From positions 1,555 through 65,554 of the IMG/VR virus record IMGVR_UViG_3300032213_001264: DNA of 64,000 nucleotides. One strand, given 5' to 3'. Positions 1,112 through 46,564 of the stretch are shown piece by piece. The notes beneath the pieces were generated by a model that saw only the letters and a program-made list of their open reading frames with translations, ran no database searches and was not told where the DNA came from. Each line of letters begins with the position of its first letter. Within the stretch, counting starts at the first letter, position 1. Both the position numbers and the translations under genes were made by a program. This DNA comes from a virus. Lineage: Duplodnaviria; Caudoviricetes.

Positions 1112-1522
1112 ATGGCATACTCAGATAAGGTAATAGACCACTACGAAAACCCAAAGAACGTAGGCACTTTAGACAAGTCGAAAAAGAACGTGGGTACAGG
1201 ATTGGTTGGAGCACCAGAGTGTGGTGACGTTATGAGACTTCAGATAGAAGTTATCGACGACATTATTGTTGACGCCAAATTTAAAACATTTGGTTGCGGT
1301 TCTGCTATTGCTTCCTCTTCGGTAGCCACAGAGTGGTTAAAGGGCAAGACATTAGACGAAGCAGTAACGATAGACAATATGGATTTGGTAGAAGAGTTAA
1401 ACCTTCCACCGGTTAAAATTCACTGTTCAGTATTAGCTGAAGATGCTATTAAATCTGCGATAAACGATTATAGACAAAAACAAGGGTTGGAACAATTAGT
1501 TTTTGAAGAATCACACATATAA
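1112..1522 (+). CDS. iscU: Fe-S cluster scaffold IscU
   Basis: MAYSDKVIDHYENPKNVG, GAPECGD, FGCGSAIASSS, LPPVKIHCSVLAEDA. Confidence 0.97.
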   Translation: MAYSDKVIDHYENPKNVGTLDKSKKNVGTGLVGAPECGDVMRLQIEVIDDIIVDAKFKTFGCGSAIASSSVATEWLKGKTLDEAVTIDNMDLVEELNLPPVKIHCSVLAEDAIKSAINDYRQKQGLEQLVFEESHI

Positions 1523-1530
1523 TATGTTTA

Positions 1531-1854
1531 ATGGTAACTGTATCAGAAACGGCCGCTAAGAAATTAAATTCTTTAATTGAGGAAAGTAGATTCAAAACTC
1601 CATTCGTTAGAGTGGCGGTTAAAGGTGGTGGCTGTAGTGGATTGTCTTACGACCTTTCGTTTGATACAGAACAGCATCCATCAGATACTTTAGCAGAAGA
1701 CAAAGGCGTACAGATACTAATAGATATGAAATCTTTGCTATATCTATATGGTACAGAATTGGATTTTTCGGATGGATTAAATGGCAAAGGGTTTCAGTTT
1801 ATAAACCCAAATGCAAGTAGGACTTGCGGCTGTGGTGAAAGTTTCGCACTTTAA
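1531..1854 (+). CDS. iscA: Fe-S cluster assembly accessory protein (IscA/HesB family)
   Basis: GGGCSGLSY and NPNASRTCGCGESF motifs. Confidence 0.95.
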   Translation: MVTVSETAAKKLNSLIEESRFKTPFVRVAVKGGGCSGLSYDLSFDTEQHPSDTLAEDKGVQILIDMKSLLYLYGTELDFSDGLNGKGFQFINPNASRTCGCGESFAL

Positions 1855-1900
1855 ACTTAAGTTTTATTATCATCTAAAAATGGTATATATTTATAGAAAA

Positions 1901-1920
1901 TAAGGACCGGTAGGCCTTTA
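1901..1920 (+). repeat. Left arm of inverted repeat enclosing hsp20
   Basis: TAAGGACCGGTAGGCCTTTA is complementary to AAAGAGGCCTACCGCCCTTA at 2417-2436; 10-bp perfect core CGGTAGGCCT/AGGCCTACCG. Confidence 0.75.
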
Positions 1921-1970
1921 GTTACGAATGTTAAATTTAATAATTAACCAAAACACACAGGAGGTGTAAA

Positions 1971-2411
1971 ATGACACAATTAACCCATTGGGGCGTCGAT
2001 CCCTTTGATCTTCTATGGAAGAATCTATTCGACCAAAATTCTAATTTCTCTACAATCGCAGAGAAAATATCTTATCCACTAGACATTTACGAGAAACAAG
2101 ACAGTATCGTATTCGAACTTGCAGCAGTAGGTTTGGACTACGAAGACATTGATATCGAAGTGCAAGGCGATATTCTTCGCATCAAGTATGCAAAAACAAA
2201 AGAAGAAGAACCTATAACAAATTTTATCCATAAAGGAATAGCACGAAGATCTTTTGATTTGGCTTGGAAAATTGCTTCCAAGTTCGATCTAACTTCTTTG
2301 GAAGCTACCATCGATAAAGGACTATTAAAAATAGAAATTCCATTATCTGATGAAAGTTTACCAAAGAAAATTCAAATCAAACCAAAGACGTTACTTCAAG
2401 TTAACGCCTAA
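1971..2411 (+). CDS. Small heat shock protein (Hsp20/alpha-crystallin family)
   Basis: YPLDIYE, ELAAVG, HKGIARRSF, GLLKIEIP; preceded by SD AGGAGGT. Confidence 0.93.
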   Translation: MTQLTHWGVDPFDLLWKNLFDQNSNFSTIAEKISYPLDIYEKQDSIVFELAAVGLDYEDIDIEVQGDILRIKYAKTKEEEPITNFIHKGIARRSFDLAWKIASKFDLTSLEATIDKGLLKIEIPLSDESLPKKIQIKPKTLLQVNA

Positions 2412-2416
2412 AAAAT

Positions 2417-2436
2417 AAAGAGGCCTACCGCCCTTA
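2417..2436 (+). repeat. Right arm of inverted repeat enclosing hsp20
   Basis: Complementary to 1901-1920. Confidence 0.75.
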
Positions 2437-2439
2437 GTT

Positions 2440-2640
2440 ATGTTTAGCATCTGTAAAAATTTCATCAAAGTAAATCAAGATCTATTTCAAGTGCTTAAAC
2501 AGTACGCTGAAGATAGAGTTAATAACCCAGAAGTTAATGTGGAAAACATTAAACAGTGGTTAGGTGCTGACACCACATTCAAAAAAGATGGAATGTTATA
2601 TTTTTGTATTAAAATTGAAGAACCTGAAATAATAAATTAA
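2440..2640 (+). CDS. Hypothetical protein
   Basis: 66 aa ORF tightly packed between hsp20 and groES. Confidence 0.7.
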   Translation: MFSICKNFIKVNQDLFQVLKQYAEDRVNNPEVNVENIKQWLGADTTFKKDGMLYFCIKIEEPEIIN

Positions 2641-2643
2641 AAA

Positions 2644-2937
2644 ATGAGTAAATTAAATCCGCTCAACGGTTTTCTAGTATTGAAACCAGTTGAAGAACAA
2701 GAACAAACCTACGGAAACATCGTAATTCCAGACTTAGGTAAAGAGCGTCCTGAAATGGGCGAAGTAGTAGCTACGAGCGAAACTTACAATTGGCACACAG
2801 ACACTTATGTTAAATCTACTGTAGAAGTAGGACAGAAAGTTTTAATTCCTAAAATGGGATCTATGAAAATCACCATCGAAGGTGAAGATTATTTCATCGC
2901 TAAAGACACAGAAATCTTAGCTGTATTAAAAGACTAA
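2644..2937 (+). CDS. groES: Co-chaperonin GroES
   Basis: LNPLNGFLVLKP, GNIVIPD, GEVVA, VGQKVL, EILAV; directly upstream of groEL. Confidence 0.93.
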   Translation: MSKLNPLNGFLVLKPVEEQEQTYGNIVIPDLGKERPEMGEVVATSETYNWHTDTYVKSTVEVGQKVLIPKMGSMKITIEGEDYFIAKDTEILAVLKD

Positions 2938-2939
2938 TT

Positions 2940-4559
2940 ATGAGTACAACAAAAAATATAAACGGAACAGAACTTAAAGAAAAGTTACTTTCTGGTATTG
3001 AGAAATTAAACTTAGCTGTATCTTCTACATTAGGACCAGGCGGTAGAACGGTTTTAATTAGAGAACAAAACGGTGAAGTTAAAGTAACCAAAGACGGCGT
3101 AACAGTAGCTAAAGCATTCCATAAATTGGAAGACGATGTTGAAGACTTAGGCGCACAGTTAGTAAAGCAAGTTAGTATTAAATCTGCAGTTGAAGCTGGA
3201 GACGGTACAACTACTTCTACTTTATTAGCAACCGAAATGGTTAGAGAAGGATTGAAAGAAATTCGTCAAGGTTCTAACGCAGTAGAGATCAAAAACTCAA
3301 TCGATAAAACAGTTAAACAAGTTATCGAATACATTAAGAAAATATCTATCGACATCGATTCAGAAGAACAAGTAAAACAAGTTGCTACTATTTCTGGTAA
3401 TAACGATCCAGAAGTTGGTAACCTTATTGCATCTGCAGTAGAAAAAGTAGGTCGTGAAGGAGTAATTACAATCGAAGAATCTAAATCTGGAGAAACTAGT
3501 TTAGAAGTAGTTGAAGGTATGCAATTTGATAGAGGTTACAAATCTCCTTATTTCGTTACCAACAACACAACGATGCAAGCGGTATTAGAAGATCCTTACA
3601 TTTTCTTATACGATGGTAGAATCTCTTCAGCACAAGAGTTATTGCAAGTTTTAACTAAAGCAAACTCTGAGAACAAACCATTGTTAATCGTAGCTGAAGA
3701 TATCGGTGAAGAAGCATTAGCAACTTTAATCGTTAACAAGATGAGAGGCATCGTTCAAGTTTGTGCAGTTAAAGCACCGGACTTCGCAGAGAGAAAAACG
3801 CTGATCTTAGAAGATATTGCAATCTTAACAGGAGGTGCAGTCGCTTCTAAAGACAAAGGTCACAAATTAGATAAATTAACTGGAGCTCAAATCAACGAGT
3901 TCTTAGGTAGAGCTAGATTGGTTACGGTAACTAAAGACGAAACTACTATCATCGATGGCAAAGGCGTTGAAACTGTAATTGAAGCAAGAGCAGAAGAGAT
4001 CAAAGAGCAAATCGAAAAGTCTACTTCGTTCTACGAGAAAGAGAAGTTACAAGAGAGATTGGGCAAATTAGTAGGCGGAGTTGCAATCATCAACGTCGGC
4101 GGTAATTCAGATATCGAAATTAGAGAAAAGAAAGATAGAGTTGAAGACGCATTATATGCAACCAAAGCAGCGTTAGCAGAAGGTATCGTACCAGGCGGAG
4201 GTTCAGCTTTATTCCAAGCGTCTATTCAACACCATCCAGAAGAGACTATCCACGATGCTATTGCTTATGGAATTGTTCAGAAAGCGATTCAAAGTCCATT
4301 CAAGAAAATCTTAGAAAACGCGGGAGTTCAGGATTGGTACACAAAAATTCCTAACGAAGGCGACGTATACGATGCAAAGAATCACAAGATTGTTAATGCT
4401 TTAGAAGCTGGTATTATTGACCCTACGAAAGTAGTTATCACCGCACTTAGAAACGCTGCTTCAGTAGCAGGCACTATTTTAACTACTGAATCTGTAGTAT
4501 TCGAAAAGAAAGACAAAGAAGAAAAAACTCAAGACCCAATGATGGGTATGGGAATGTAA
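2940..4559 (+). CDS. groEL: Chaperonin GroEL
   Basis: [44 protein letters not shown]-terminal MMGMGM. Confidence 0.98.
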
Positions 4560-4578: not shown

Positions 4579-5514
4579 ATGTTAGTAGGACTGGTATCAA
4601 TGATGGGAAATGTAGGCGCTACTTTGAATAGTCAAGGCGGTGGATACGGACTCATCCAAACAAAAATGTTATTTGACGAGCATCCTCACGATACTGTAGA
4701 CGTAAATCCTCCACCATCAACGTGGGGGAATTACGATCTGCTTTATATCTGTGAAGGAGTTAATTTCGTAGCAGGATCTTTTAATGTTCCTGGTGGACCT
4801 CAACCACTTCATACAGAAAAAATGAAAGCTATCGCAGATTTTAAGGGCGAGCTTAGATATTCCAACAGTATATTCGACTTCAATAAATTCAATCAGAGAT
4901 TAAAGATCGAAGCCACTTTTCCAGAAACGCATAGAGTTTCTTTTTACAATACTTTTTTAGCTCACGGTTTAGAAAGTAGAAAAGCAGTTATTGGAGATTC
5001 TCATGCTTTATCGGTATGGAAACCTCAACACACTTTAGATTTTACCGCTGGTAGAACTTTGCACGGATTCTTAAAAAGAGAAAGCGTAGAACAAATCAAT
5101 AATAGATTTGACGAAGTTACTTTGTATTTTGGTAATATCGATTTACGTTTTCACTTAATGAGACAAGAAAATCCACAACAAGCTACAGCAGATCTATTTA
5201 ATCGTTACGTAGAGTTTGCAAAACAATTAAAGAAAGCAACTTTAGTAGAATTATTACCAGTAGAACACGAATCAAGAAAAATTCCTGGAACTGGTTTGTA
5301 CAAGAAGCAACCATTCTTTGGTACAAGAGAAGAGAGAATGCAAGTAAGAGAAATTGCTAACGAAATTATTAACAATTCAGGATTAGAAGTAATTCAATGG
5401 CCATCAGAGTGGATAGACACAGACGGTACTAAGATGTTAGATATATTAGAAATGAAGCAGTCAGTCCATTTAAGACCAAAGCACTATCCATACCTTACAG
5501 AAATAACAAAATAA
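4579..5514 (+). CDS. SGNH/GDSL-like hydrolase-fold phage protein
   Basis: IGDSH, GRTLHG, FGNID, SVHL match the SGNH block I/II/III/V order. Confidence 0.55.
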   Translation: MLVGLVSMMGNVGATLNSQGGGYGLIQTKMLFDEHPHDTVDVNPPPSTWGNYDLLYICEGVNFVAGSFNVPGGPQPLHTEKMKAIADFKGELRYSNSIFDFNKFNQRLKIEATFPETHRVSFYNTFLAHGLESRKAVIGDSHALSVWKPQHTLDFTAGRTLHGFLKRESVEQINNRFDEVTLYFGNIDLRFHLMRQENPQQATADLFNRYVEFAKQLKKATLVELLPVEHESRKIPGTGLYKKQPFFGTREERMQVREIANEIINNSGLEVIQWPSEWIDTDGTKMLDILEMKQSVHLRPKHYPYLTEITK

Positions 5515-5532
5515 TTATTATAAACAACAAAC

Positions 5533-6225
5533 ATGAAAAAAATGTCACTCATAGTAGTCAGTCTACTAACAGTATTATTCAGCTGTAACACACAAAATGA
5601 AGCGGATCAAGAAGTTAAAGTCGGCGAAGTAGTAGCAATTCATCAAGGCTCTTTTGCATTTTGCGGTGCATCAGCAGCAGTTCCTACTGGAAAAACGATT
5701 ATCGTTCAAGGCGTGGAATATAAAGAAGGATGTGCAGTATGTCCAGTATTAACAGGACCGTCTCTTTCTAATTTAGCCATGCAAGGCGTTAGCGGAACTT
5801 ACGGAAAATTTAACGTAGGCGAAAACCCACAAACTCCAGACGGAACTGATAAAACAGTATGGTCTTTCTTTTGGTATTACGATTCAACAACTACAGTACC
5901 ACAATTTGATCCATCGACAAAAGAGTGGCAATTATTACCACCAGTAAATCGTATGTTTGTTATAAACTTAGATTCTCCAAGTACAAGCGAAAGTAATATG
6001 TTCGCAATGCCAGGAATTATCTTCGATACAACAGATGCAGGTATTGTATTAGCAAAAGTATACGGTCCACTTAACGAAGCAGCAGTTCCATTACGTAAAG
6101 CCGTTCCAGTTAAATCAGGAATGACATCTGTAACCGCAGCTAAAGAAGGATTTCCTTACCCAGTAGGAACACCAGTTCCTGTTAGCGCATTAAGTAAGGA
6201 ACTTCAAAAAACTAAAAAATACTAA
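5533..6225 (+). CDS. Putative lipoprotein of unknown function
   Basis: Basic N-terminus, hydrophobic stretch, lipobox LFSC. Confidence 0.7.
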   Translation: MKKMSLIVVSLLTVLFSCNTQNEADQEVKVGEVVAIHQGSFAFCGASAAVPTGKTIIVQGVEYKEGCAVCPVLTGPSLSNLAMQGVSGTYGKFNVGENPQTPDGTDKTVWSFFWYYDSTTTVPQFDPSTKEWQLLPPVNRMFVINLDSPSTSESNMFAMPGIIFDTTDAGIVLAKVYGPLNEAAVPLRKAVPVKSGMTSVTAAKEGFPYPVGTPVPVSALSKELQKTKKY

Positions 6226-6228
6226 TTA

Positions 6229-7116
6229 ATGTTTTTAAACAAAGCAACAGATGAATCTAATTTAGACATGTCAGATGGTAGAGACTTAAACTACTATCTT
6301 GACATGACTAAAGATTACAAACACGATTTTACATTTAAAGTAAAAGACGTAGAAGGCTTTAAAGTTGTCGATGATGGAGAATTCCAATTCGGAACTAAAG
6401 CAAAAATGGCAGACTTCTTCATATCTCAAGTAAAAGAAGATGCGATGGTTTATGTTGCGCCAAGAACAGGTTACGCTCCTTATTCTTTGTGTCATTTAGC
6501 AAAGAAGTACAATAAAAAATTGTATCTAGTTATGCCAGCTTCTAAAGAGGCATCAGAGCACCAGTTAACAGCAATAGAAAATGGTGGAATTCCAATGTTT
6601 ACTAGAATACCAGCAATGCCAACTGCAAATATTTGGGCAAAGCAATTCGCAGAAAAAATTGGAGGAAAGTATTTGCCTTTTGGATTAAAGCACGAAATGG
6701 TGGTTGCCGGTGGAGTTAGAGTATTTTACGATAACTTCAAAGACACCGATATTGAAACCATGTGGAGTGTATTCTCTACTGGAGTTTTATCTCGCACTTT
6801 ACAAATCGCACTACCAAAAACTAAATTTAATGCTGTGGCCGTGGCAAGAAACATTCAAGAAGGAGAACTTGGTAGAGCCAAATTCTACACTCACGACAGA
6901 GCGTTCTTAAAACCTTCAAGGATACAGACTCCTTTTGATTCTATACAAACATACGATGCAAAAGGTTGGGAACTCCTAAAGCAACATGGGCAGCAAGGGG
7001 ATTGGTTTTGGAATGTAGCAGGAAATATGCCTAAACCCACAATAAAACCTAGTGACATTGATTCAAGTCGCGAGTGGGGAGACTTTAAAGATTTTGAAAA
7101 GCACTACAAAGATTAG
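6229..7116 (+). CDS. PLP-dependent enzyme (fold type II), phage DNA-hypermodification type
   Basis: GTK (PLP lysine), STG phosphate loop, YDAKGW, WFWNVAG; resembles PLP enzymes of phage base-modification clusters. Confidence 0.7.
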   Translation: MFLNKATDESNLDMSDGRDLNYYLDMTKDYKHDFTFKVKDVEGFKVVDDGEFQFGTKAKMADFFISQVKEDAMVYVAPRTGYAPYSLCHLAKKYNKKLYLVMPASKEASEHQLTAIENGGIPMFTRIPAMPTANIWAKQFAEKIGGKYLPFGLKHEMVVAGGVRVFYDNFKDTDIETMWSVFSTGVLSRTLQIALPKTKFNAVAVARNIQEGELGRAKFYTHDRAFLKPSRIQTPFDSIQTYDAKGWELLKQHGQQGDWFWNVAGNMPKPTIKPSDIDSSREWGDFKDFEKHYKD

Positions 7117-7152
7117 CTTTATTATTAGCCCTTTATTTCTTATATTTACTTC

Positions 7153-7458
7153 ATGAATATACTACTTAAAGCAAATGAAATCGTATTCGAAAGAAACGAA
7201 GAAAAGGAGCGTATGTATGGCCCTTTTCAAGAAGGCATGCAAGAAGCAGCCAAGATTGCATCTTTATTATCAAGAAAGGAGATCACTACAGTTGATATGT
7301 ACAATTGTATGTTAGCCCTAAAGTTATCAAGAGCATCTTATAATTACAAAGAAGACAATTATTTAGATTTAGTTGCGTATATTGCATCACTAAACGACTA
7401 TCAAAACAATGTACAGAATGAACATTCAAAAGACAAGAAACGTAAAAACACCAAGTAG
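7153..7458 (+). CDS. Small all-helical phage protein (DUF6378-like)
   Basis: ER..YG, LKLSR, KEDNYLDLVAY pattern; sits in a nucleotide-metabolism cluster. Confidence 0.6.
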   Translation: MNILLKANEIVFERNEEKERMYGPFQEGMQEAAKIASLLSRKEITTVDMYNCMLALKLSRASYNYKEDNYLDLVAYIASLNDYQNNVQNEHSKDKKRKNTK

Positions 7459-7846
7459 AGGTACAAGCTTATCAGCAGGTATCGATTTCTACGTACCAGA
7501 AGATTTTCAAGAAACGACCATCCACTCAGGAGAATCAGTTCTAATTCCTTCAGGTATCAGAGCACACGTTCCATCAGGTTATGCACTCATCGCATTTAAC
7601 AAATCAGGAGTCGCGACTAAGCAAAATTTATCAGTAGGAGCTTGTGTAGTAGACGAAGATTACGAAGGAGAAATTCATTTACACCTAATCAATGTAGGAA
7701 GATCTCATACGACTATTAAACCAGGACAAAAGCTAACTCAATTTATTTTAATTCCTGTAAGTTATATGGATGTACATGTATTAGAAGAATTACCAGATAG
7801 AAACACAGAGCGTGGAGCTGGTGGATTTGGATCAACAGGGTTATAA
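7418..7846 (+). CDS. dut: dUTP diphosphatase (trimeric)
   Basis: SAGIDF, NKSG, VVDEDYEGEI, QFIL, RGAGGFGSTG. Confidence 0.93.
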   Translation: MNIQKTRNVKTPSRGTSLSAGIDFYVPEDFQETTIHSGESVLIPSGIRAHVPSGYALIAFNKSGVATKQNLSVGACVVDEDYEGEIHLHLINVGRSHTTIKPGQKLTQFILIPVSYMDVHVLEELPDRNTERGAGGFGSTGL

Positions 7847-7856
7847 AAAAAATGAT

Positions 7857-8435
7857 ATGAAAAATTTAATAGTAATAGGTCATCCCGATAAAAGAAGTTT
7901 CTGCTACAATGGTATCATGAAAACTATCAAAGAAACTTTAAAATCTAATAAAGAGGAAGTGTGCGTAATTGATCTTTACAAAGACAATATAACGTTTGAT
8001 TTCTCAAAAGATAAAGTTCAAAAATATAAAGACCTTATTACGTGGGCTGATAGAATTTATTTCATATCTCCTGTTTGGTGGTTCAGATGCACTCCTGCAT
8101 TAGAATCATTCTTTGATCAAATATTCACACCAGGTTTTGCATATAATTTTAAACCAATAACAAAAGTTTACGGCATACCAAAACCTTTATTAGGCAACAA
8201 AAAAGTTAGAACATATTTAACTCACGGTGCTCCAGCATTACCAGTATTAATTTTGTACTTAAATTCGGTTAAATTAAGATTGGTTATGGGTGTTTATTCT
8301 TTTGTATTCGGTTGGTTTAAAACAAAAACAAGACAGTTTTGGAGTGTGCCTTTTATTTCTCAAAATGAAAGATTAGTGTATTTGGAAAAAGTAAAAGAGG
8401 ACATTAAAAAAGACCTAAAGTTTTTTACAAAATAA
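7857..8435 (+). CDS. Flavodoxin-like NAD(P)H-dependent oxidoreductase (NQO/KefF family)
   Basis: GHPDKRSF, WADRIYFISPVWWF, PALESFFDQIFTPGFAY. Confidence 0.85.
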   Translation: MKNLIVIGHPDKRSFCYNGIMKTIKETLKSNKEEVCVIDLYKDNITFDFSKDKVQKYKDLITWADRIYFISPVWWFRCTPALESFFDQIFTPGFAYNFKPITKVYGIPKPLLGNKKVRTYLTHGAPALPVLILYLNSVKLRLVMGVYSFVFGWFKTKTRQFWSVPFISQNERLVYLEKVKEDIKKDLKFFTK

Positions 8436-8438
8436 TAA

Positions 8439-8846
8439 ATGAAACAACTAAAATTAGACGAAGTATTTATCAACATTGCAGCAGAAATAGGCTCTTTGTC
8501 GCACTGCACCAGATCAAAAGTAGGTGCAGTGTTGGTGAAGGACGGTAATGTAATAAGTTTTGGGTACAATGGTACTCCAGCTGGAATGGACAATGGTTGT
8601 GAAGAAAATAATGTTACCAAAGACGAAGTCATTCACGCGGAAATGAATGCCATATTGAAAGCGGCCAAAAGTGGTAACGCAGTAGACGGTAGTACCCTAT
8701 ACTTAAGTTTATCCCCGTGTCAAAATTGTTGTAAATTGATTATACAATCAGGTATTAGTCGCGTAGTCTACTTAGAAGATTACAGAGACATATCTCCTGT
8801 TATATTTTTATCTAAATTTATACAAGTAGACAAGCATGTTATATAA
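8439..8846 (+). CDS. dCMP deaminase
   Basis: SHCTRSKVGAV, GYNGTP, HAEMNA, SPCQNC zinc motifs. Confidence 0.92.
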   Translation: MKQLKLDEVFINIAAEIGSLSHCTRSKVGAVLVKDGNVISFGYNGTPAGMDNGCEENNVTKDEVIHAEMNAILKAAKSGNAVDGSTLYLSLSPCQNCCKLIIQSGISRVVYLEDYRDISPVIFLSKFIQVDKHVI

Positions 8847-9474
8847 AAACGCCACAGAAGCATTCGAAGTACTATTCGTAGACATCATGCAAATAGATGA
8901 AGATTTTGCAGGTACTAAAGCAATATTCAACGAAGTGTTTACATTAGCAAACCCTAGCGATAAAGTAATTACTACGCCAGAACGTAAATTCAATACTGAT
9001 TATGCAGAGTACGAATGGAATTGGTATCTTAAAGGAGATCGTGATGCAACTGAAATAGCCGAACGTGCCAAGATATGGAAACAAATGATGGTTCCTGGTA
9101 CTAACGAAGTAAACTCTAACTACGGTTATTTTTGGAAACTAAACGATCAGTTACAAAGAGCAATAACAGAATTACGATTTAATCCAGAAAGCAGAAGAGC
9201 AATTGTAGTTCATTACGATATCAACGAATTAGATAGGTACAAGTACGATACTCCATGTAATGACATACTTAATTTCTATATCAAAAACGGTAAATTAGAA
9301 TTAACTGTATTCGCAAGATCTATTGACTTAGTATACGGTTTCTGTAACGATCAGTACACATTCGCCAAGCTTATGGAGATGGTAGCGTTTCAGTTAGATA
9401 TTCCAGTAGGAGAAATGCATTGGATGGTAACTAACTTACACATCTATCCAAGACATTACGATATGTTAAAATAA
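8836..9474 (+). CDS. Thymidylate synthase-family enzyme, probably dCMP-specific (dCMP hydroxymethylase-like)
   Basis: SRRA, catalytic PC, RSIDLVYGFCND (Asp at the E. coli N177 position), NLHIY. Confidence 0.8.
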   Translation: MLYKNATEAFEVLFVDIMQIDEDFAGTKAIFNEVFTLANPSDKVITTPERKFNTDYAEYEWNWYLKGDRDATEIAERAKIWKQMMVPGTNEVNSNYGYFWKLNDQLQRAITELRFNPESRRAIVVHYDINELDRYKYDTPCNDILNFYIKNGKLELTVFARSIDLVYGFCNDQYTFAKLMEMVAFQLDIPVGEMHWMVTNLHIYPRHYDMLK

Positions 9475-9479
9475 AAGTT

Positions 9480-9959
9480 ATGATAGCAACAAAATTAGCG
9501 AGAGAGTTTTTAGAAGAACAATTATCCAAGTTAGTTCCAAAAAAGTACAGTCAATTTGTGTGGTGGAGACGCTACGAAGTTAGACAGACTTTACCAGAAA
9601 AAGCTCCTTTGTACGATAAGATAATTAATGGTGACTATGAGCACTCGGATTATTATTATCAAGCAGAAATGGAGAATTATCTTCTACAAGACAGAATTAA
9701 AGACATACGATTCTACGAAGATCAGTTAGAGCACAGAAGTTTATTCGGTGCTAGATGGAAAAGATTAATGGACGATTATGCTAAAGACGAGAAAGAGATC
9801 TTAAGAAAGATGAAGAAGGACTTTAAAGCCACTTTCGGTATATCTGGTGATGAATTAGAGCTTATTATGGAAGACTTTGACGGTACAACTTTAGAATTAT
9901 ACATGCACGTAAAACAGTTGACCAGAGAGCGCAGAATGAAAAACTTACAATTAATATGA
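9480..9959 (+). CDS. Hypothetical protein
   Basis: 159 aa ORF with AAAGTTATG start. Confidence 0.75.
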   Translation: MIATKLAREFLEEQLSKLVPKKYSQFVWWRRYEVRQTLPEKAPLYDKIINGDYEHSDYYYQAEMENYLLQDRIKDIRFYEDQLEHRSLFGARWKRLMDDYAKDEKEILRKMKKDFKATFGISGDELELIMEDFDGTTLELYMHVKQLTRERRMKNLQLI

Positions 9960-11523: not shown

Positions 11524-12260
11524 AGTATCAAGCAATCATAGTATCAGACTTACATTTAGGCACAAAAGATTCTAAAGCAGAAGAGTTTATGGAATTTTTA
11601 GAAAAGCATCCAACAGATCTACTAATTCTTAATGGAGATATCATTGATGGTTGGGCTTTGAATAGAGGCGCTAAATGGAAAAAGCAGCACACAAAAGTCA
11701 TATCTAAGTTATTGAAATTATCTAACAAGACACAGATCATTTGGATCAGAGGAAATCATGATGAATTCTTACACGAATTTATGGGAAACCATTTTGGAGG
11801 AATTGAAATTAGAGAAGATTATGTATTCAATACAAAAGTTTGGGTGGAAGATGATGTATATAGGAATGAGAGTTATTATATTTTCCACGGAGATGTTATT
11901 GATATTTTTATAACAAAGTATAAATGGCTTTCTAAAATAGGCGCGATAGGATACGATTTTGCTTTATGGTTAAATAGGTGGTACAACAAATACAGAGTGT
12001 GGAGAAAATTACCCTACCAATCAATTTCACAAAAGATAAAGAGCGGAGTAAAAGCCGCAACCAACTACGTTAATGATTTTGAAGTAACAGCGTTATCCAT
12101 GGCGAGCAAAAAAGGCTGTCACGGAGTAATGTGCGGGCATATACACCAACCAGAAGACAGAATGATAAATGGTAAGCGCTATTTAAACAGCGGGGACTGG
12201 GTTGAGAACATGACCGCTATATGTGTAGAAGATACTGGCAGGATATATTTATATTCATGA
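11520..12260 (+). CDS. UDP-2,3-diacylglucosamine diphosphatase-like metallophosphoesterase
   Basis: SDLHLG, GDIIDGW, GNHD, HGD, GHIH, NSGDW. Confidence 0.85.
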   Translation: MKYQAIIVSDLHLGTKDSKAEEFMEFLEKHPTDLLILNGDIIDGWALNRGAKWKKQHTKVISKLLKLSNKTQIIWIRGNHDEFLHEFMGNHFGGIEIREDYVFNTKVWVEDDVYRNESYYIFHGDVIDIFITKYKWLSKIGAIGYDFALWLNRWYNKYRVWRKLPYQSISQKIKSGVKAATNYVNDFEVTALSMASKKGCHGVMCGHIHQPEDRMINGKRYLNSGDWVENMTAICVEDTGRIYLYS

Positions 12261-12892
12261 AACAAGCCCTATTTTTTATCTGTTTACTATTCACATTAGC
12301 AGTAAACGCCCAAGACACGGTTAGAATCCGCCACAAAGAATTCACTACAGTATACTCAAAATCAAAGAAATATCCAGTGCTTGTAGAGTGGTACGCAACT
12401 AAAGCAAAAATAGGATGTCCTACACCACTAGCGAGAAAAGATCAATTCGCACCAGATCCTCAAATTAGAGAAGAATCTGATATAGCGAAAGATTATGTTG
12501 GTTCAGGAACAGATCGTGGCCACATGAGCCCTGCAGCTGACAACCTATGTTCAGGAGCAGAGGTACAGAAAGAGTGTTTCTATTTCACTAATATGTCTCC
12601 TCAATACCACAGTTTAAATGCTGGAGATTGGAAATCACTTGAAACTTTGACTAGAAGTTTAGCAATGCAATACGATAGTGTACACGTATGGGCAGGTAAT
12701 ATAGGCGAAGCTAAAAAAATTGGTAGAGTTTCTGTTCCCACTATTTGTTGGAAAGTGATTTATATTAAGAAGACCAAAGAGTACATGGCTTATATGTTCG
12801 ACAATAATACAAGCAAGCCAGATGGCCTTAATAACAATAAGGTTACTTTGGAAGACATACAGAAGTTAACTCACTTCAAATTTAAAGATTAA
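12257..12892 (+). CDS. Secreted DNA/RNA non-specific endonuclease (NucA/EndA family)
   Basis: Signal peptide MKQALFF..VNA-Q; DRGH, NMSPQ, LNAGDWKSLE. Confidence 0.9.
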   Translation: MKQALFFICLLFTLAVNAQDTVRIRHKEFTTVYSKSKKYPVLVEWYATKAKIGCPTPLARKDQFAPDPQIREESDIAKDYVGSGTDRGHMSPAADNLCSGAEVQKECFYFTNMSPQYHSLNAGDWKSLETLTRSLAMQYDSVHVWAGNIGEAKKIGRVSVPTICWKVIYIKKTKEYMAYMFDNNTSKPDGLNNNKVTLEDIQKLTHFKFKD

Positions 12893-13231: not shown

Positions 13232-13492
13232 ATGAAAAGAGTTTTATACTTCTCAACAGCATGGTGTGGACCTTGTAAAATGTTCAAACCAGTAGTTCAA
13301 CAGGTTTCCCAGGAGACAGGTATTCAAGTTACGTATATAGATGCAGATCAAGATCAAGAGACTTCAAAAAAGTATAATATCAATTCTGTACCTACTATCG
13401 TAATCGTTGATGCTTCTGGAGGTATGTTATACAGAAACGCAGGTGTTATGCCAAAGGGCCAATTATCTCAATTATTGAGAACAATAGGATAA
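13232..13492 (+). CDS. trxA: Thioredoxin
   Basis: WCGPCK and SVPT motifs. Confidence 0.92.
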   Translation: MKRVLYFSTAWCGPCKMFKPVVQQVSQETGIQVTYIDADQDQETSKKYNINSVPTIVIVDASGGMLYRNAGVMPKGQLSQLLRTIG

Positions 13493-13547: not shown

Positions 13548-14033
13548 ATGCGATATACACTACTACTATTATTATTAAGTCCGCTGTTTGTTTTATCCCA
13601 AGACTTAAACAGCAAGGTTTCAGTAAACACTGTTAAAAATAGCGTAAGAATGGGCCCAATGACTGGGAATGCCAATCTTACGATGGGTGTTAAAAACATA
13701 ATTCAAGAAGTTTTACAAGACAAAGGTTATTCACTAGTTAACAAAGAAGAAGCGGATCTTTTTGTTGAAGTAGAGATTGTGTACATGGACCAGCAAAAAA
13801 CTGCTACAAATGTATCAATATTTCACAAAGACGAAAATACAGTGGTTATTAGAATGCTTGGTAAATTAATAAACAAATCAGGCAAAGTTGTTAAAAAGGA
13901 GTTGGTAACCGACGAATCTTCTGAAATATCCACATCAACATTATTGATTTCAGAGAATGGAGAGTTTAACTCAACCGTTATGAGAAACGCACTAAAAAAG
14001 ACATGCGTTCAGGTTGTGAATAAACTACTCTAA
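13548..14033 (+). CDS. Exported protein, possibly CsgG/LptE-like fold
   Basis: Signal peptide; GVKNIIQEVLQDKGY..ADLFVEVEI; C-terminal NALKKTC helix resembles the end of 20674 protein. Confidence 0.55.
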   Translation: MRYTLLLLLLSPLFVLSQDLNSKVSVNTVKNSVRMGPMTGNANLTMGVKNIIQEVLQDKGYSLVNKEEADLFVEVEIVYMDQQKTATNVSIFHKDENTVVIRMLGKLINKSGKVVKKELVTDESSEISTSTLLISENGEFNSTVMRNALKKTCVQVVNKLL

Positions 14034-23577: not shown

Positions 23578-23948
23578 GGGGATGCTTTGGAATTGATTCA
23601 CAATTCGGAGGTAATACCACACGCAGAGAGAAGTACTAGATCTCTTTAAATCTGTACAAAACAATAACCGACGAAATGTCAACAATGACCTTCGATTCTT
23701 TAATGGAATTCGTAGGCGCGAACGAGTACGCATTAGCTGCTTAATTAGCATCGGGTGTAACATCCTAGGAACAGAAGTTACAAGCCAAATTTTCTTAGTT
23801 TAGATTAAAATTAAGTGGTGGATATCGTAAGGACCAAAAACCATACGACCCTTTTACTGATCAGCTTAAAACGTAGATCTAAGCGTGTGAGACGTTGGTA
23901 TTATTATTCATTGTGAAGACACGAGTTCGACTCTCGTCATCTCCACCA
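23578..23948 (+). ncRNA. ssrA: tmRNA (transfer-messenger RNA)
   Basis: Acceptor stem GGGGATG/CATCTCC with G3-U wobble, A discriminator, encoded CCA; T arm ACGAG-TTCGACT-CTCGT; tag frame 23670-23744 ending YALAA-stop. Confidence 0.95.
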
Positions 23949-25049: not shown

Positions 25050-25122
25050 GCCTTGCTAGCTCAGTTGGTAGAGCAGCTGATTTGTAATCAGCAGGTCGGC
25101 GGTTCAAGTCCGTCGCGAGGCT
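25050..25122 (+). tRNA. tRNA-Thr(TGT)
   Basis: Canonical cloverleaf; anticodon arm GCTGA-TTTGTAA-TCAGC; GTTCAAGTC T loop; no encoded CCA. Confidence 0.95.
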
Positions 25123-25247
25123 CACAAATCGTTCGAACGTGGAACGACGAAGACGGCCATGGCATACCGTAAGATCTGCTTGCTTAATAGCCCCGAATCG
25201 TATGTCGGCGATGTTGGCAACTCATAGGGTAATTTAAAAGTTGTAAC

Positions 25248-25333
25248 GGAGAGATGGTAGAGTTGGTCTATTGCACCTGACTTGAAATCAGGAGACTGTC
25301 ACAGGTCCGTGGGTTCGAATCCTACTCTCTCCG
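25248..25333 (+). tRNA. tRNA-Ser(TGA)
   Basis: GGAGAGA/TCTCTCC acceptor, CCTGA-CTTGAAA-TCAGG anticodon arm, long variable arm, G discriminator. Confidence 0.95.
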
Positions 25334-25336
25334 CAT

Positions 25337-25407
25337 TGCCCTTTAGTATAACGGTAGTACGACTGTTTTTGGTACAGTTTGTTGTGGTTCGAATCCATGA
25401 GGGGCAA
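25337..25407 (+). tRNA. tRNA-Gln(TTG)
   Basis: TGCCCTT/AGGGGCA acceptor, ACTGT-TTTTGGT-ACAGT anticodon arm, GTTCGAATC T loop. Confidence 0.92.
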
Positions 25408-25427
25408 CTCAATTAAAAATTAAAACT

Positions 25428-28261: not shown

Positions 28262-29704
28262 ATGATTAAAGGTTACACTCCAAAAGATCAAAGAAAAAAG
28301 ATCTTGTTTTTGTGCGATGACATTAGAATGACAAGCGGAATTTCTACAATAGCTAGAGAACTTGTTATTGGCACATCACACAGATTTAATTGGATCAACG
28401 TAGGCGGAGCTATCCAACATCCAGACAATGGAAAAAGATTGGACATAAGCGAAGATACAAATAAAATAATGGGAATTCCTGACGCGTCTGTGTTTATATA
28501 CCCAATAAACGGATACGGTTCTCCAGAATTGATTAGACAGTTGATGGACATTGAGAAGCCTGACGCTATCATGTTTTTCACAGATCCAAGATATTGGACA
28601 TGGTTATTTCAAATGGAAAACGAGATTAGGAAAAAAGTTCCTATGATCTACTTAAATATTTGGGACGATTTACCCGCTCCTCTTTATAATAAGTCTTACT
28701 ACGAATCTTGCGATACACTAATGGCGATTTCAAAACAAACTTTGAATATCAATAAACTTGTATTAGGCGATAAAGCTGCAGATAAGATTTTAAAGTATAT
28801 TCCTCACGGCATAAACGAGAAGATATTCTTTCCAATCAACGAATTTATGGTTCAAGACATACAAGCGCTTGAAGCAAAAAAGAAAGCGGTATTCGGAAAT
28901 AATATTCCAGAGTTCGTTGTTTTTTACAATGCTAGAAACATTAGAAGAAAGTCCACATCTGATTTGATAGCAGCTTATTCTGTATTCTGCGAGAAGATAG
29001 GAAAAGAAAAAGCTAAAAAATGTGCTTTACTTATGCACACTCAAGTGAGAGACGATAATGGTACAGACTTAGAGGCGGTTAAAGATTTATTATGCGATCC
29101 AGAATATGTAAGAGTTGTTTTCCACGATGCTAGAGTGGCTGCTAACGAAGTAAACTGGCTATATAATATGTCAGATGTTACAGCATTAATCTCCTCTAAC
29201 GAAGGTTGGGGATTGTCTTTAACAGAATCTTTAATGGCAGGTAGAATGATCATTGGTAATGTAACCGGTGGAATGCAAGATCAGATGAGATTTGAAGATG
29301 AGAATGGCAAATGGATCGACTTCGACGAAAACTTCTGTTCTAACCACTTTGGAACTTATAAAAAGCATGGAGATTGGGCTGTACCTGTATACCCTTCTAA
29401 CTTAAGCATTGTTGGATCTATTCCAACTCCGTATATCTTTGACGATCGTTGCGATATTAGAGATGTTGCAAAAGCTATAGAAGAAGTTTATAACTTAACG
29501 CCTGAAGAGAGACAACAAAGAGGATTGAATGGAAGAACTTGGGTACAATCAGAAGAATCTATGATGAGTGCAAGCAAAATGTCAGAGAATGTCATAGATT
29601 GTATAGAAGAAACTTTCAATAAATTCAAACCAAGAAAATCTTTCGAATTAATCAAAATAGATAAATTACCAAGAAAAAAAATAACACACAAATTAATATA
29701 TTAA
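28262..29704 (+). CDS. Glycosyltransferase (GT-B, GT4-like)
   Basis: TSGIS, PHGIN, NARNIRRK, SNEGWGLSLTESL. Confidence 0.88.
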   Translation: MIKGYTPKDQRKKILFLCDDIRMTSGISTIARELVIGTSHRFNWINVGGAIQHPDNGKRLDISEDTNKIMGIPDASVFIYPINGYGSPELIRQLMDIEKPDAIMFFTDPRYWTWLFQMENEIRKKVPMIYLNIWDDLPAPLYNKSYYESCDTLMAISKQTLNINKLVLGDKAADKILKYIPHGINEKIFFPINEFMVQDIQALEAKKKAVFGNNIPEFVVFYNARNIRRKSTSDLIAAYSVFCEKIGKEKAKKCALLMHTQVRDDNGTDLEAVKDLLCDPEYVRVVFHDARVAANEVNWLYNMSDVTALISSNEGWGLSLTESLMAGRMIIGNVTGGMQDQMRFEDENGKWIDFDENFCSNHFGTYKKHGDWAVPVYPSNLSIVGSIPTPYIFDDRCDIRDVAKAIEEVYNLTPEERQQRGLNGRTWVQSEESMMSASKMSENVIDCIEETFNKFKPRKSFELIKIDKLPRKKITHKLIY

Positions 29705-29705
29705 T

Positions 29706-30998
29706 ATGAAGCAATATTGTGTAGTAAGTTGTCCAATAGACACTTATTCAGGTTACGGAGCAAGAGCTAGAGATTTCGTTAAAGCATTGTATGAATCTAA
29801 AAAAGAAGAATACGATATTGAAATTATTTCTCAAAGATGGGGAGTTACTCCATGGGGATATATAAAAGATCATGAACAAGAATGGGGTTTTTTAGAGCCA
29901 ATGATCATGAAACAACAGATGACAAAACAGCCAGACGTTTGGATTCAAATTACAGTGCCAAATGAATTTCAAGCGGTAGGCAAATTCAACATCGGAGTTA
30001 CAGCAGGTATAGAAACCACATTATGCCATGCAACTTGGATAGATGGAGTTAACAGAATGAATCTGACATTAACTTCTTCAGAGCACGCTAAAAATGTTTT
30101 TAAGCAATCTACTTTTGAAGAAAAGAATGGTCAAGGTCAAGTAGTTAGACAAATCAAATTAGAAAGACCAGTTGAAGTACTATTCGAAGGTGTTGATCTG
30201 AACAAATATTTTTATGTAGCAGACGAAGATTTAGAAGGCACTGAATTAGTTCAAGCTTTGGATGAAATAAAAGAAGACTTCTGTTACTTGTTTGTCGGAC
30301 ATTGGTTACAAGGAGATTTAGGCGAGGATAGAAAAAATGTAGCCTTAACAATTAAGACATTCTTAGAAACATTTAAAGATAAGAAAAGCAAACCAGCTTT
30401 AATACTTAAAACATCAGGAGCAGGATCTTGTATTATGGATAGAGATGAGATGCTTAAAAAGATTGATGCAATAAGAAACACTGTAAGTGGAAGTTTACCT
30501 AACATCTACTTATTACATGGAGAGATGGACGACAAAGATATCAATAATTTGTACAATCACGGTAAAGTTAAAGCTATGATTAGCTTGACAAAAGGCGAAG
30601 GTTTTGGTAGACCACTATTAGAGTTTACTTTAGCCAAAAAACCATTGATAGTAACTGCTTGGTCAGGTCACATTGACTACTTATTTATGGAAAATACATG
30701 CATGGTAGGAGGAACACTAAAAGGCGTTCATCCATCAGCTCAAGTAAAAGATATGATATTAGCTGAATCTGCATGGTTTAGTCCTGATACAAAGCAAGCA
30801 GAGTTCTATTTAAAAGATATTTTTGAAAAGTACTCTAAGTATGAAGAGCGCGCAAAGAAACAAGCGCATCAATCTAAAACTAAATTTAGCTTTGATGAGA
30901 TGAAAAAAGCTTTAGAAGCAATATTGAATAAAATTCCTAAAAGTGTGGGATTAACATTACCTAAATTAAAGAAAATAGAAGTTAAAAATGACAAGTAA
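29706..30998 (+). CDS. Glycosyltransferase (GT-B, GT4-like)
   Basis: SGYG, DRKNV, KGEGFGRPLLEF. Confidence 0.85.
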   Translation: MKQYCVVSCPIDTYSGYGARARDFVKALYESKKEEYDIEIISQRWGVTPWGYIKDHEQEWGFLEPMIMKQQMTKQPDVWIQITVPNEFQAVGKFNIGVTAGIETTLCHATWIDGVNRMNLTLTSSEHAKNVFKQSTFEEKNGQGQVVRQIKLERPVEVLFEGVDLNKYFYVADEDLEGTELVQALDEIKEDFCYLFVGHWLQGDLGEDRKNVALTIKTFLETFKDKKSKPALILKTSGAGSCIMDRDEMLKKIDAIRNTVSGSLPNIYLLHGEMDDKDINNLYNHGKVKAMISLTKGEGFGRPLLEFTLAKKPLIVTAWSGHIDYLFMENTCMVGGTLKGVHPSAQVKDMILAESAWFSPDTKQAEFYLKDIFEKYSKYEERAKKQAHQSKTKFSFDEMKKALEAILNKIPKSVGLTLPKLKKIEVKNDK

Positions 30999-31203
30999 AG
31001 AATTTATTATTTGGATGCGAGGATTTACAGAAGGAGTTCACGATTTTAACATTACCCCTAAACAGTGGGATACATTAAAAGAGAAATTAGCTGAGGTAAA
31101 TGATGAACCTCGTAATACAATAGCGTACTATTCTAAAGATGGTAGACCCACTTGGTACACAACTACTAATTCAACTAACGAAAAAACATTATTAAATGAC
31201 TGA
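30988..31203 (+). CDS. Hypothetical protein
   Basis: 71 aa, overlaps both neighbours. Confidence 0.65.
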   Translation: MTSKEFIIWMRGFTEGVHDFNITPKQWDTLKEKLAEVNDEPRNTIAYYSKDGRPTWYTTTNSTNEKTLLND

Positions 31204-31642
31204 TCAATTAACATCATGTCCAAAGTGTAAGGCAGAAGATGCATGTTACATAACTCCAATTAATGAGTTTCATAGTGGATATGCATGCTTTAGTTGTGGT
31301 TTTACAACTAGCGATTTAATGAGAGAAGGCGAATTTGATTTCGAACAATACGAAGAAGAGATGCCTGAACTTTACAAAGATTTAAAATACACAGACGAAG
31401 AAGGGCGCGTATGGTATCCTCAAGTAATTAACATAGAAGATAAAGGCACCGTATTTGCGAATGGTGGTTCTAAAGAGGATTGGCAATGGGCTGGAATTAA
31501 AACTATAGAATTAACAGAAGAAGAGAAAGAGCTTCCTAAATTTAAAGGCAAGACCCATAAATCCGATTCAGCTAGCTTACAAGGATTTGAAACAGATTTC
31601 TTTGCGGCGTGCGATTATATAGGATTATTTGATATAAAATAA
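31196..31642 (+). CDS. Zinc-ribbon hypothetical protein
   Basis: CPKC..CFSCG. Confidence 0.72.
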   Translation: MTDQLTSCPKCKAEDACYITPINEFHSGYACFSCGFTTSDLMREGEFDFEQYEEEMPELYKDLKYTDEEGRVWYPQVINIEDKGTVFANGGSKEDWQWAGIKTIELTEEEKELPKFKGKTHKSDSASLQGFETDFFAACDYIGLFDIK

Positions 31643-31690
31643 AGACTATAATTTTTTATATTTTTTTATAAAATTAACATATTTATTAGT

Positions 31691-31846
31691 ATGGAACAAA
31701 CAAAATCGATTCACATTAATCTTAAATTACATACAGAAATTAAAAAGTATTGTAATGATAATGGTTTAAAATTGCAAAAATTTGTAGAAAAACTAATAAA
31801 AGATGGATTATTTAAAAATATACAATCGAATAATAGCTCGAGCTAA
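31691..31846 (+). CDS. Small RHH-like DNA-binding protein (not in ORF track)
   Basis: MEQTKSIHINLKLHTEIKKYCNDNGLKLQKFVEKLI; follows an ATATTTAT motif. Confidence 0.55.
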   Translation: MEQTKSIHINLKLHTEIKKYCNDNGLKLQKFVEKLIKDGLFKNIQSNNSSS

Positions 31847-32390
31847 ACTAGAAAATAGAAAAAAAACAATTGAGATATATTATGAAGCGCATCATATAAT
31901 ACCTGAATGTTTAGGAGGAAATAAAAATAAACAAAATATGGTTTTATTGAGTGCAAGAGAGCATTTTATATGTCATTGGTTATTACATAACGCATTTAAA
32001 ACAAATAAAAAATTATTTTATGCATTCTATATGATGTGTAAAGTTAAAAATAAAAATCAAAATAGATATACACCTAGTTCGAGAATAGTAGAGTACGCTA
32101 TATTACAAAAAAATAAAATGAGTATTATGCCCTCAGGAAGTAATCATTATATGTTTGGAAAAAAACATAGCGAAGATACAATACAAAAAATGAAAATTTC
32201 TAAAAAAGGTTGTGTATCATTTAGAAAAGGAAAACCAGCAATAAATAGAAAACAAGTACAAGATTTGGAGACAGGGAGAATATTTGAATCACTATTAGAT
32301 GCTTCTAAGTATTATAAACTTAGTCAATCTTATATTAGTAAATTACTAAAAGAAAAACGCAAATTAAAATATTACAATCAACATGATTAA
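31803..32390 (+). CDS. HNH homing endonuclease with NUMOD3/NUMOD1-like DNA-binding motifs
   Basis: EAHHIIPECLGG..NMVLLSAREHFICH; FGKKHSEDTIQKM; TGRIFESLLDASKY; visibly more AT-rich. Confidence 0.88.
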   Translation: MDYLKIYNRIIARAKLENRKKTIEIYYEAHHIIPECLGGNKNKQNMVLLSAREHFICHWLLHNAFKTNKKLFYAFYMMCKVKNKNQNRYTPSSRIVEYAILQKNKMSIMPSGSNHYMFGKKHSEDTIQKMKISKKGCVSFRKGKPAINRKQVQDLETGRIFESLLDASKYYKLSQSYISKLLKEKRKLKYYNQHD

Positions 32391-40397: not shown

Positions 40398-40398
40398 T

Positions 40399-41394: not shown

Positions 41395-41395
41395 T

Positions 41396-46156: not shown

Positions 46157-46564
46157 ATGGCAGAAGATTTCAAAGAAATACAAACAGCAGTAGACGGAAT
46201 ATTAAATGTTAAGTCTTACGTTAGAAGAAAGAAGAGAACTGCATTAGACAAGAAGAAGGAGATGTTTGTACAGATGATGAATTCTATGGAAGAGATAACA
46301 GTGAGACAAGCATTGTTGTATGCTGATATGGATATGGATATGTTTAAATACGACGAGAAGTTTTTATCTATTATAGATCTAATGTATTACTTGCATTTTG
46401 GTGAAGCCTGTTCAGATATGATAGCATTCTATCTTTATGATAGACGAAATCCAGATGGCACATTAAATGCATTAGTAGATGAATCAGGTCAAGAAATAAT
46501 ACTAGAAACGCCTTACGATCTTTGGAGTCTCATGGTAAATCTTAATCCAAAAATACAGGACTAG
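46157..46564 (+). CDS. Hypothetical protein
   Basis: 135 aa, contiguous with neighbours. Confidence 0.72.
   Translation: MAEDFKEIQTAVDGILNVKSYVRRKKRTALDKKKEMFVQMMNSMEEITVRQALLYADMDMDMFKYDEKFLSIIDLMYYLHFGEACSDMIAFYLYDRRNPDGTLNALVDESGQEIILETPYDLWSLMVNLNPKIQD

Follow-up and report, generated by a model that had tools for sequence, protein, structure and literature searches.

A candidate cytosine hypermodification module beside a predicted dCMP hydroxymethylase in a large uncultured phage

The viral record IMGVR_UViG_3300032213_001264 (Duplodnaviria; Caudoviricetes) is a 65.5-kb IMG/VR contig with a CheckV completeness of 35%, of which bases 1555-65554 were analysed here (64,000 nucleotides, hereafter the window). 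Open reading frame (ORF) calls place a run of genes at window positions 4579-9474, all on the plus strand, that encodes among others an SGNH-like protein, a fold-type II pyridoxal 5′-phosphate (PLP) enzyme, a deoxycytidine monophosphate (dCMP) deaminase and a short homologue of thymidylate synthase (TS). We read this region as the block in which a large uncultured phage keeps its genes for pyrimidine precursors. The best explanation overall, to which we give slightly less than an even chance, is that an undescribed cytosine hypermodification module lies beside a dCMP hydroxymethylase. The module would consist of the SGNH-like protein, the PLP enzyme and two further protein families, H1 and H12. 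A reading of the same DNA made without database searches (the sequence-only reading) had already named the genes of the run; each of them was recovered at its place and on the plus strand, and a gene for a predicted 230-aa lipoprotein (5533-6225) had been overlooked.

The short TS-family enzyme (212 aa; 8836-9474, plus strand) matches the Pfam family Thymidylat_synt with 102 bits against a cut-off of 24.3 (E 4e-29). In a MAFFT alignment with E. coli ThyA it retains E58, W80, Y94, R126, R127, C146, R166, S167, D169, H207 and Y209. At the position of E. coli N177 it carries an Asp, in alignments to ThyA as well as to T4 gp42, and a second Asp precedes the catalytic Cys by three residues, at the place of L143, as in T4 gp42; one TS alignment set the one-residue gap near L143 elsewhere. 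According to Lee et al. 2026 (PMC13326640), N177D denotes dCMP as substrate, L143D/E a hydroxymethyl product and D169N a 5-hydroxy-dCMP synthase. By these criteria, N177D, Asp at L143 and the retained D169 give the window enzyme the residue signature of a 5-hydroxymethyl-dCMP (5hmdCMP) synthase, and the same signature occurs in 11 of 11 lineage homologues checked. Thus, the earlier suggestion of a cytosine-type TS homologue is borne out by the alignments, and the protein is probably a dCMP hydroxymethylase that makes 5-hydroxymethyl-dCMP from dCMP.

The nearest cultured homologue is found in Bacteroides phage BF486P2 (43% identity), and relatives in Bacteroides fragilis phages are annotated as dCMP hydroxymethylase. 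BF486P2 (L085) encodes two TS-family paralogues, 253 and 226 aa long; Asp is found at 177 in each, and E58, W80 and R127 are lost from one of them. The window enzyme stops near ThyA residue 217. A truncated or split gene was considered and rejected, since the lineage homologues listed all measure 210-222 aa. Likewise rejected was a role of the flavodoxin-like protein of the run as reduced-flavin donor to a 5-hydroxy-dCMP synthase, as D169 is kept and the flavodoxin-like gene occurs in the nearest relatives only. The sequence-only reading had proposed a search for conventional thymidylate synthases, the outcome of which was divided. ThyX was missing from contigs G000-G005 and canonical ThyA from both the window and the 174-kb contig of a 98%-identical relative; more distant relatives (G004 and L234) do possess a canonical ThyA. 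In the ThyA proteins of G004 (L080, 50038-51066) and L234 (8702-9790), which are 351-362 aa long, the catalytic-Cys region is followed by about 60-90 inserted residues. In the scheme that we propose, dCMP deaminase and dUTPase would supply dUMP for a thymidylate synthase, an enzyme for which this phage type seems to have no gene.

The SGNH-like two-domain protein (p311, 311 aa; 4579-5514, plus strand) is a core member of the module. It matches phrog_13881 (E 1e-40) and no Pfam family, including Lipase_GDSL; a language-model atlas provided a weak lead only (score 0.91). An AF2 model built on a 29-sequence alignment (pLDDT 82) displays an SGNH-hydrolase fold of the esterase/acyltransferase type over residues 130-310 (Foldseek probability 1.00), and the N-terminal portion of about 130 residues matches no assigned fold. 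Ser141, His142, Asp188 and His297 are invariant and Asn186 is at least 90% conserved, all of them within the three motifs picked out by the sequence-only reading. The block I Ser, the block III Asn of the Gly-x-Asn-Asp type and the block V His are kept; the Asp that would stand three residues ahead of the block V His is absent. Homologues are present in 43 cultured phage records. In Aeromonas T4-like phages, the SGNH-like part forms the N-terminal third of a 795-aa protein, and in Tenacibaculum phage PTm1 the gene is located between ribonucleotide reductase (RNR) genes. With one genome checked per group, Aeromonas phage 31 and PTm1 were each found to encode a second, cytosine-type TS homologue, which has a gp42-type signature in the former and that of a 5-hydroxy-dCMP synthase in the latter. 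In the PTm1 protein (L177, record positions 123231-123866), Glu stands three residues before the Cys, position 169 is Asn and position 177 is Asp; PTm1 may accordingly have DNA based on 5-hydroxycytosine.

The PLP enzyme (PALP, 295 aa; 6229-7116, plus strand; phrog_7093), the other core member encoded in the run, has no Pfam match on its own, its PALP score lying below the gathering cut-off. When 70 homologues were combined into a profile, it matched cysteine synthase (E 2e-7), serine dehydratase and the 1-aminocyclopropane-1-carboxylate (ACC) deaminase homologue 1j0a, and in that match Lys57, the predicted Schiff-base residue, aligns with the PLP lysine of cysteine synthase. Lys57 is at least 90% conserved in the 70 sequences and invariant in two sub-alignments, and the motifs GTK, YDAK and FWNV are family-wide. 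The AF2 model (pLDDT 96) has a tryptophan-synthase-beta-like two-domain fold, with a Foldseek probability of 1.00 to threonine deaminase, serine racemase and 1j0a (TMq 0.70). As judged from profile and model, the protein is a fold-type II PLP enzyme, a membership that holds at the level of the superfamily.

A wider view of the family reveals its company. Searches at E<=1e-3 returned 725 cluster representatives, many of which are long fusions, and metagenomes contain hundreds of near-identical PLP proteins. Among ten long representatives scanned, eight are fused to methyltransferase domains, six of these being of the DNA-methylase type (N6_N4 or Eco57I); an Asp/Arg-hydroxylase domain occurs in two of the ten, once together with a DNA-methylase domain. 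Three fused relatives score above the 35-bit PALP cut-off (36.5, 37.7 and 44 bits), the others below it. Only three cultured phage records have a PLP homologue, each annotated as or within a DNA methylase. The sequence-only reading had left room for an enzyme that clusters with metabolic cysteine synthases; these data instead support placing it in a family that is specific to phages and associated with DNA-modification genes. In the literature searched, to which Iyer et al. 2013 (NAR) and the supplements of papers did not belong, neither the PLP family nor its pairing with methylase-like proteins nor any PLP-dependent cytosine hypermodification was described.

Conservation of gene order provides the strongest argument for a functional unit. 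In the window lineage (about 35 loci, PLP enzymes 75-100% identical) the order is GroEL, SGNH, (lipoprotein), PLP, DUF6378, (dUTPase), (flavodoxin-like), dCMP deaminase, TS and a protein of no named family. The lipoprotein, dUTPase and flavodoxin-like genes are accessory and not part of the core, as their presence varies among these loci. An intermediate clade of PLP enzymes, 40-50% identical to that of the window, was collected in a scan that gave 548 viral stretches, of which 80 loci were kept. The locus scans used sub-alignments; single-protein scans with distant PLP members gave none. Fifty-two kept loci outside the window lineage contain the PLP gene, and 41 of these extend at least 3 kb upstream of it, with genes labelled by our own profiles. 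Upstream of the PLP gene in these 41 loci we found the SGNH-like gene in 38, H1 (350-409 aa) in 40, both in 37, DUF6378 in 24 and H12 in 16; a single locus (L219) encodes an SGNH-H1 fusion. Two arrangements recur. Group A has the order dCMP deaminase, dUTPase_2, SGNH, H1, PLP, a 147-aa Tmk-like P-loop kinase and a 269-aa TS homologue. Group B, from jumbo phages that encode a split PolB, RNR and a RecA-like protein, shows DUF6378, SGNH, H1, (H12), PLP and dUTPase_2. The module is therefore common to differing replication backbones, as the window phage encodes PolA. We consider it very likely that SGNH-like protein, PLP enzyme, H1 and H12 constitute one real conserved module.

Of the 52 loci, 20 also encode a TS homologue, and all copies that adjoin the module bear the Asp/Asp/Asp signature. 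Such adjacency is seen in Group A, at L180 and L229 and in the window lineage; Group B loci mostly have no TS gene within 10 kb. The claim that the whole run forms one pathway thus stands in part. SGNH-like and PLP genes are linked across divergent lineages and often lie next to a cytosine-type TS gene; dUTPase and flavodoxin-like genes come and go, and H1 and H12 lie outside the window. H1 separates the SGNH-like and PLP genes in four window-lineage loci (L216, L220, L234 and L078) and adjoins H12 at another site in the 174-kb contig of the 98%-identical relative. Given that location, phages of the window type most likely encode all four proteins and keep the parts of the module at separate places in the genome. 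H1 and H12 have neither a Pfam family nor a PDB sequence match, and hhalign detected no similarity to ViI gp247 AADT, the gp243 kinase, the ViI HMUDK_hel protein or Aeromonas ORF233c. An H1 homologue was absent from 50,697 cultured phage records. In a language-model atlas, the clusters nearest to H1 contain HMUDK_hel in 11-14% of their members. This lead was not confirmed by PF18723, which is absent from four H1-bearing module contigs in a search that finds ViI.

The recurrence of the module among genes for pyrimidine precursors, in phages that replicate by different machinery, and the DNA-modification company of the PLP family both argue for an action on modified cytosine. We tentatively propose two steps. 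In the first, as its residue signatures suggest, the short TS homologue would turn dCMP into 5-hydroxymethyl-dCMP. In the second, suggested by gene neighbourhood, the SGNH/PLP/H1/H12 module would further modify the hydroxymethylated cytosine, either in DNA or as a nucleotide. The chemistry is speculative. The SGNH-type enzyme might acylate or otherwise activate the 5-CH2OH group, or trim an ester; H1 and/or H12 might perform a group transfer; and the PLP enzyme might act on an alpha-amino-acid moiety, by decarboxylation as in ViI gp226 and M6 gp52 or by beta-replacement as in cysteine synthase. Such a route would manage without the kinase and AADT steps used for thymidine. That the module acts on 5-hydroxymethylcytosine (hmC) or a cytosine nucleotide is a possibility we rate somewhat below even. 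A more far-reaching version is doubtful: the four proteins would form a self-contained pathway that converts hmC in DNA into an amino-acid-derived (or acyl-activated, then aminated) cytosine by non-kinase/AADT chemistry, and the pairing of the PLP family with methylase-like enzymes elsewhere would be a second undescribed hypermodification system.

Gene neighbourhood lends itself to a plainer account as well, namely an ordinary nucleotide block. Here, the TS homologue makes 5hmdCMP, the DNA contains plain or glycosylated 5-hydroxymethylcytosine, and SGNH, PLP, H1 and H12 are a separate accessory module for a substrate that is neither DNA nor nucleotide (e.g. in amino-acid or lipid/ester metabolism), which came to lie there by chance. 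Unrelated genes are commonly packed in phage early regions, and NifU, IscA, Hsp20 and GroEL genes stand just upstream of the run. The nearest solved PLP structures are metabolic enzymes, the SGNH matches are carbohydrate and lipid esterases, and the GT2 glycosyltransferase encoded 1.3 kb downstream could by itself glycosylate 5hmC. Chance placement fits poorly with a module that is found again and again inside pyrimidine genes across different phage backbones (Group A, L180, L229 and the window lineage), and with a wider PLP family whose members are fused to, or encoded next to, DNA-methylase-like proteins and TAGT. On balance we regard the ordinary block as rather unlikely.

The DNA-modification company of the PLP family is most evident in a distant clade of 230-257 aa proteins that are 25-35% identical to the window enzyme. 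A motif scan gave 282 viral stretches, from which 80 loci were kept (L089-L168); ORFs were called and clustered anew, and the PLP domain was recovered in 61 of them. The PLP gene adjoins an N6_N4-methylase-like gene, whose SAM-binding and SPPY motifs (SAM, S-adenosylmethionine) are intact, in 27 of the 61 loci and lies no more than four genes from it in 44; a protein with an HD-like motif is encoded nearby in 31. Further neighbours are a TET-associated glycosyltransferase (Pfam TAGT), a PNP_UDP_1 phosphorylase, presumably of the superfamily that includes methylthioadenosine/S-adenosylhomocysteine (MTA/SAH) nucleosidase, and a phosphoribosyltransferase. In seven loci, a dUTPase-like gene is followed by an S-AdoMet lyase gene. 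The neighbour families F1, F2 and F10 have no PDB match, and an SGNH-like homologue was found in none of the 80 loci. These loci are a candidate for a second, separate base-modification system; as a speculation, a SAM-derived adduct (e.g. aminocarboxypropyl) would fit their gene set.

The same neighbours invite the view that the PLP enzyme acts on SAM or a derivative (homoserine lactone, ACC, aminocarboxypropyl), either to deplete SAM against restriction or to process a group on a base, the hmC pathway being independent of it. Frequent methylase-like neighbours and methyltransferase fusions, the S-AdoMet lyase genes and the recurrent PNP_UDP_1 and phosphoribosyltransferase genes would all be at home in such a scheme. 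None of the distant-clade partner families occurs in the window, though, and the methylase-like family is also absent from the five related contigs. The window clade is set apart from the distant one by its low identity and by partners that are SGNH and H1 instead, and our literature search gave no paper tying such a PLP enzyme to SAM. We therefore hold action on SAM to be improbable.

Several observations weigh against a cytosine hypermodification module in the window phage. The sole link between the module and hmC is gene neighbourhood, and H1 and H12 are absent from the 64-kb window. Four lineage loci (L062-L065) have no SGNH-like gene and still keep PLP and TS, and in the Aeromonas and Tenacibaculum phages the SGNH-like protein occurs with no PLP homologue at all. 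No TS homologue was detected in four of the five long Group B contigs examined (27-43% complete), as the ordinary block would also have it, and none of the 80 distant-clade loci contains a TS-family gene, SAM-related genes being found there instead. As to the enzymes, the TS homologue misses the last ~50 residues of ThyA and ~30 of T4 gp42, and the Asn that binds the PLP O3′ in cysteine synthase aligns with an aromatic residue in the window enzyme. A T4 gp1-type deoxynucleoside monophosphate (dNMP) kinase was not found in five related contigs, in a weak single-sequence search run without a positive control. The amino-acid:DNA transferase ADDT (formerly aGPT-Pplase2; PF18724), which the sequence-only reading had not seen in the window either, is absent from the five related contigs G000-G004, and the same search does detect that of ViI.

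The remaining genes of the run complete the nucleotide block. The predicted lipoprotein encoded between the SGNH-like and PLP genes (plus strand) has, as read from its sequence, a signal peptide that ends in a Leu-Phe-Ser-Cys lipobox. Its gene is confined to the closest relatives (PLP identity of about 90% or more) and gave no family match in Pfam, PHROG and NCBIfam profile searches. The DUF6378 protein (101 aa; 7153-7458, plus strand; Pfam E 1e-12), a frequent companion of the module, has no PDB match. It is followed by a trimeric-type dUTPase (145 aa; 7409-7846, plus strand; PF00692, E 1e-23), which varies among relatives and is missing from several lineage loci as judged by tblastn. The Flavodoxin_2 or NAD(P)H-oxidoreductase-like protein (207 aa from a GTG start; 7812-8435, plus strand; Pfam E 9e-23, domain from residue 16) has NCBIfam matches far below the cut-offs, and among the listed loci of at least 9 kb its gene is restricted to L005, L008, L009 and L015. 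The dCMP deaminase gene (135 aa; 8439-8846, plus strand; Pfam E 7e-27) shares 11 bases with the beginning of the TS homologue and is kept beside it in the window lineage and in Group A loci. A 159-aa protein (9480-9959, plus strand) always follows the TS homologue in the window lineage.

The window has about 35% G+C, carries nearly all of its genes on the plus strand and shows no similarity to cultured phages at the DNA level. A family A DNA polymerase gene lies 5′ of the run, as do, directly before it (1112-4559), genes for NifU-like and IscA-like Fe-S assembly proteins, Hsp20 and a full GroEL. No cysteine desulfurase gene was seen alongside the NifU-like and IscA-like genes. On the 3′ side, the GT2 glycosyltransferase gene is accompanied by genes for a metallophosphoesterase, a NucA-type non-specific endonuclease (12221-12892) whose N-terminal part includes a hydrophobic, signal-like stretch, a small thioredoxin-like protein with a Cys-Gly-Pro-Cys motif (13232-13492) and a signal-peptide protein (13548-14033). 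The host may belong to the Bacteroidota, as hinted by the signal and lipoprotein sequences and by the Bacteroides and Tenacibaculum phages in which the nearest homologues occur. A tmRNA gene, whose tag peptide ends in ALAA, and three tRNA genes (Thr, Ser, Gln) are located at 23578-23948 and 25050-25408. ORFs with NUMOD3 and HNH_3 motifs (31803-32390 and 46564-47244), in and after the sugar cluster described below, are likely homing endonucleases.

This sugar-biosynthesis cluster spans about 17 kb (about 28262-45447). It encodes several GT1, GT2, GT11 and GT17 glycosyltransferases, GDP-mannose 4,6-dehydratase, three more NAD-dependent epimerases/dehydratases, a DegT-type aminotransferase, DUF3431 and DUF5672 proteins and a Methyltransf_24 protein. 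Targets of glycosylation could be virion proteins, the host surface or DNA. With such genes in the window, and with carbohydrate esterases and peptidoglycan O-acetyl enzymes as the top fold matches of the SGNH-like protein, the SGNH-like and PLP proteins might serve glycan biosynthesis, through sugar O-acetylation or de-acetylation and an amino-sugar or amino-acid substituent, and not DNA. The cluster is more than 20 kb away from the module, however, and in Groups A and B the module is flanked by nucleotide and replication genes, not sugar genes. A role in glycan synthesis thus appears very improbable.

Routes to hypermodified thymidine are known, and the cytosine adducts with described routes are mostly sugars. 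The module considered here is abundant in environmental viromes, as illustrated by the 548 viral stretches with intermediate-clade PLP relatives, and the H1 and H12 families gain a testable context. If hmC is indeed decorated by it, the module would provide new enzymes acting on DNA bases, of interest for DNA labelling and epigenetic tools, and would explain restriction and CRISPR resistance of a widespread group of uncultured phages.

Among known systems, T4 gp42 resembles the window TS homologue in the catalytic Cys, the phosphate-binding Arg residues, E58, Y94, D169, the Asp at N177 and the Asp at -3, and its structure 1b5e was recovered by a PDB sequence search (E 5e-16). It differs in length (246 aa vs 212 in the window) and in three residues, the window enzyme having H147N, Q165A and C168I where T4 has T, M and N. 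The other T4-type functions, i.e. dNMP kinase, dCTPase gp56 and alpha/beta-glucosyltransferase, were not identified in Pfam scans and, for the kinase, the weak search mentioned above.

In Lee et al. 2021 (PMC8989533), ViI gp226 and M6 gp52 are PLP-dependent decarboxylases of amino-acid-thymidine conjugates in DNA, and 1j0a is cited as the Phyre2 template for ViI gp226. The window enzyme shares with ViI gp226 the fold-type II superfamily, the 1j0a match, a lysine that falls on ViI K92 and its encoding by a phage among pyrimidine-modification genes. The sequence-only reading had gone further and taken it to be of the ViI/M6 kind, which fails beyond the superfamily: hhalign gave a probability of 2.7% (E 0.017) between ViI gp226 and the window PLP family, and tblastn of the window protein produced no ViI or M6 match at E<=1e-3. 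The best Foldseek match in this comparison was a 241-aa protein (E 5e-4, TM 0.44) of Serratia phage IME250, which we take to be ViI-like. The partners differ as well, with 5-HMUDK and ADDT in ViI and M6 and SGNH, H1 and H12 in modules of the window type, and the window TS homologue is cytosine-type, unlike the dUMP hydroxymethylase of the ViI/M6 systems.

A closer relative of the PLP enzyme is gp1 of Erythrobacter phage vB_EliS_R6L, with a PLP domain that is 29% identical (E 4e-25) and the nearest viral structure (E 1e-22, rmsd 2.2 Å). In R6L and its relatives, this domain either belongs to an 810-aa 'DNA modification methylase' or is encoded beside an SPPY methylase-like gene, and these phages have neither a TS-family gene nor an SGNH-like partner. 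RB69 gp48 and DLP3 gp80 provide the parallel on the cytosine side. These 5-hydroxy-dCMP synthases (PMC13326640) likewise combine N177D with an acidic residue at L143 in a TS homologue, and they represent phage cytosine hypermodification that begins at the mononucleotide. They have D169N, whereas the window enzyme keeps D169. For this reason, hydroxymethylation and not flavin-dependent hydroxylation is predicted for the window TS homologue, despite its flavodoxin-like neighbour.

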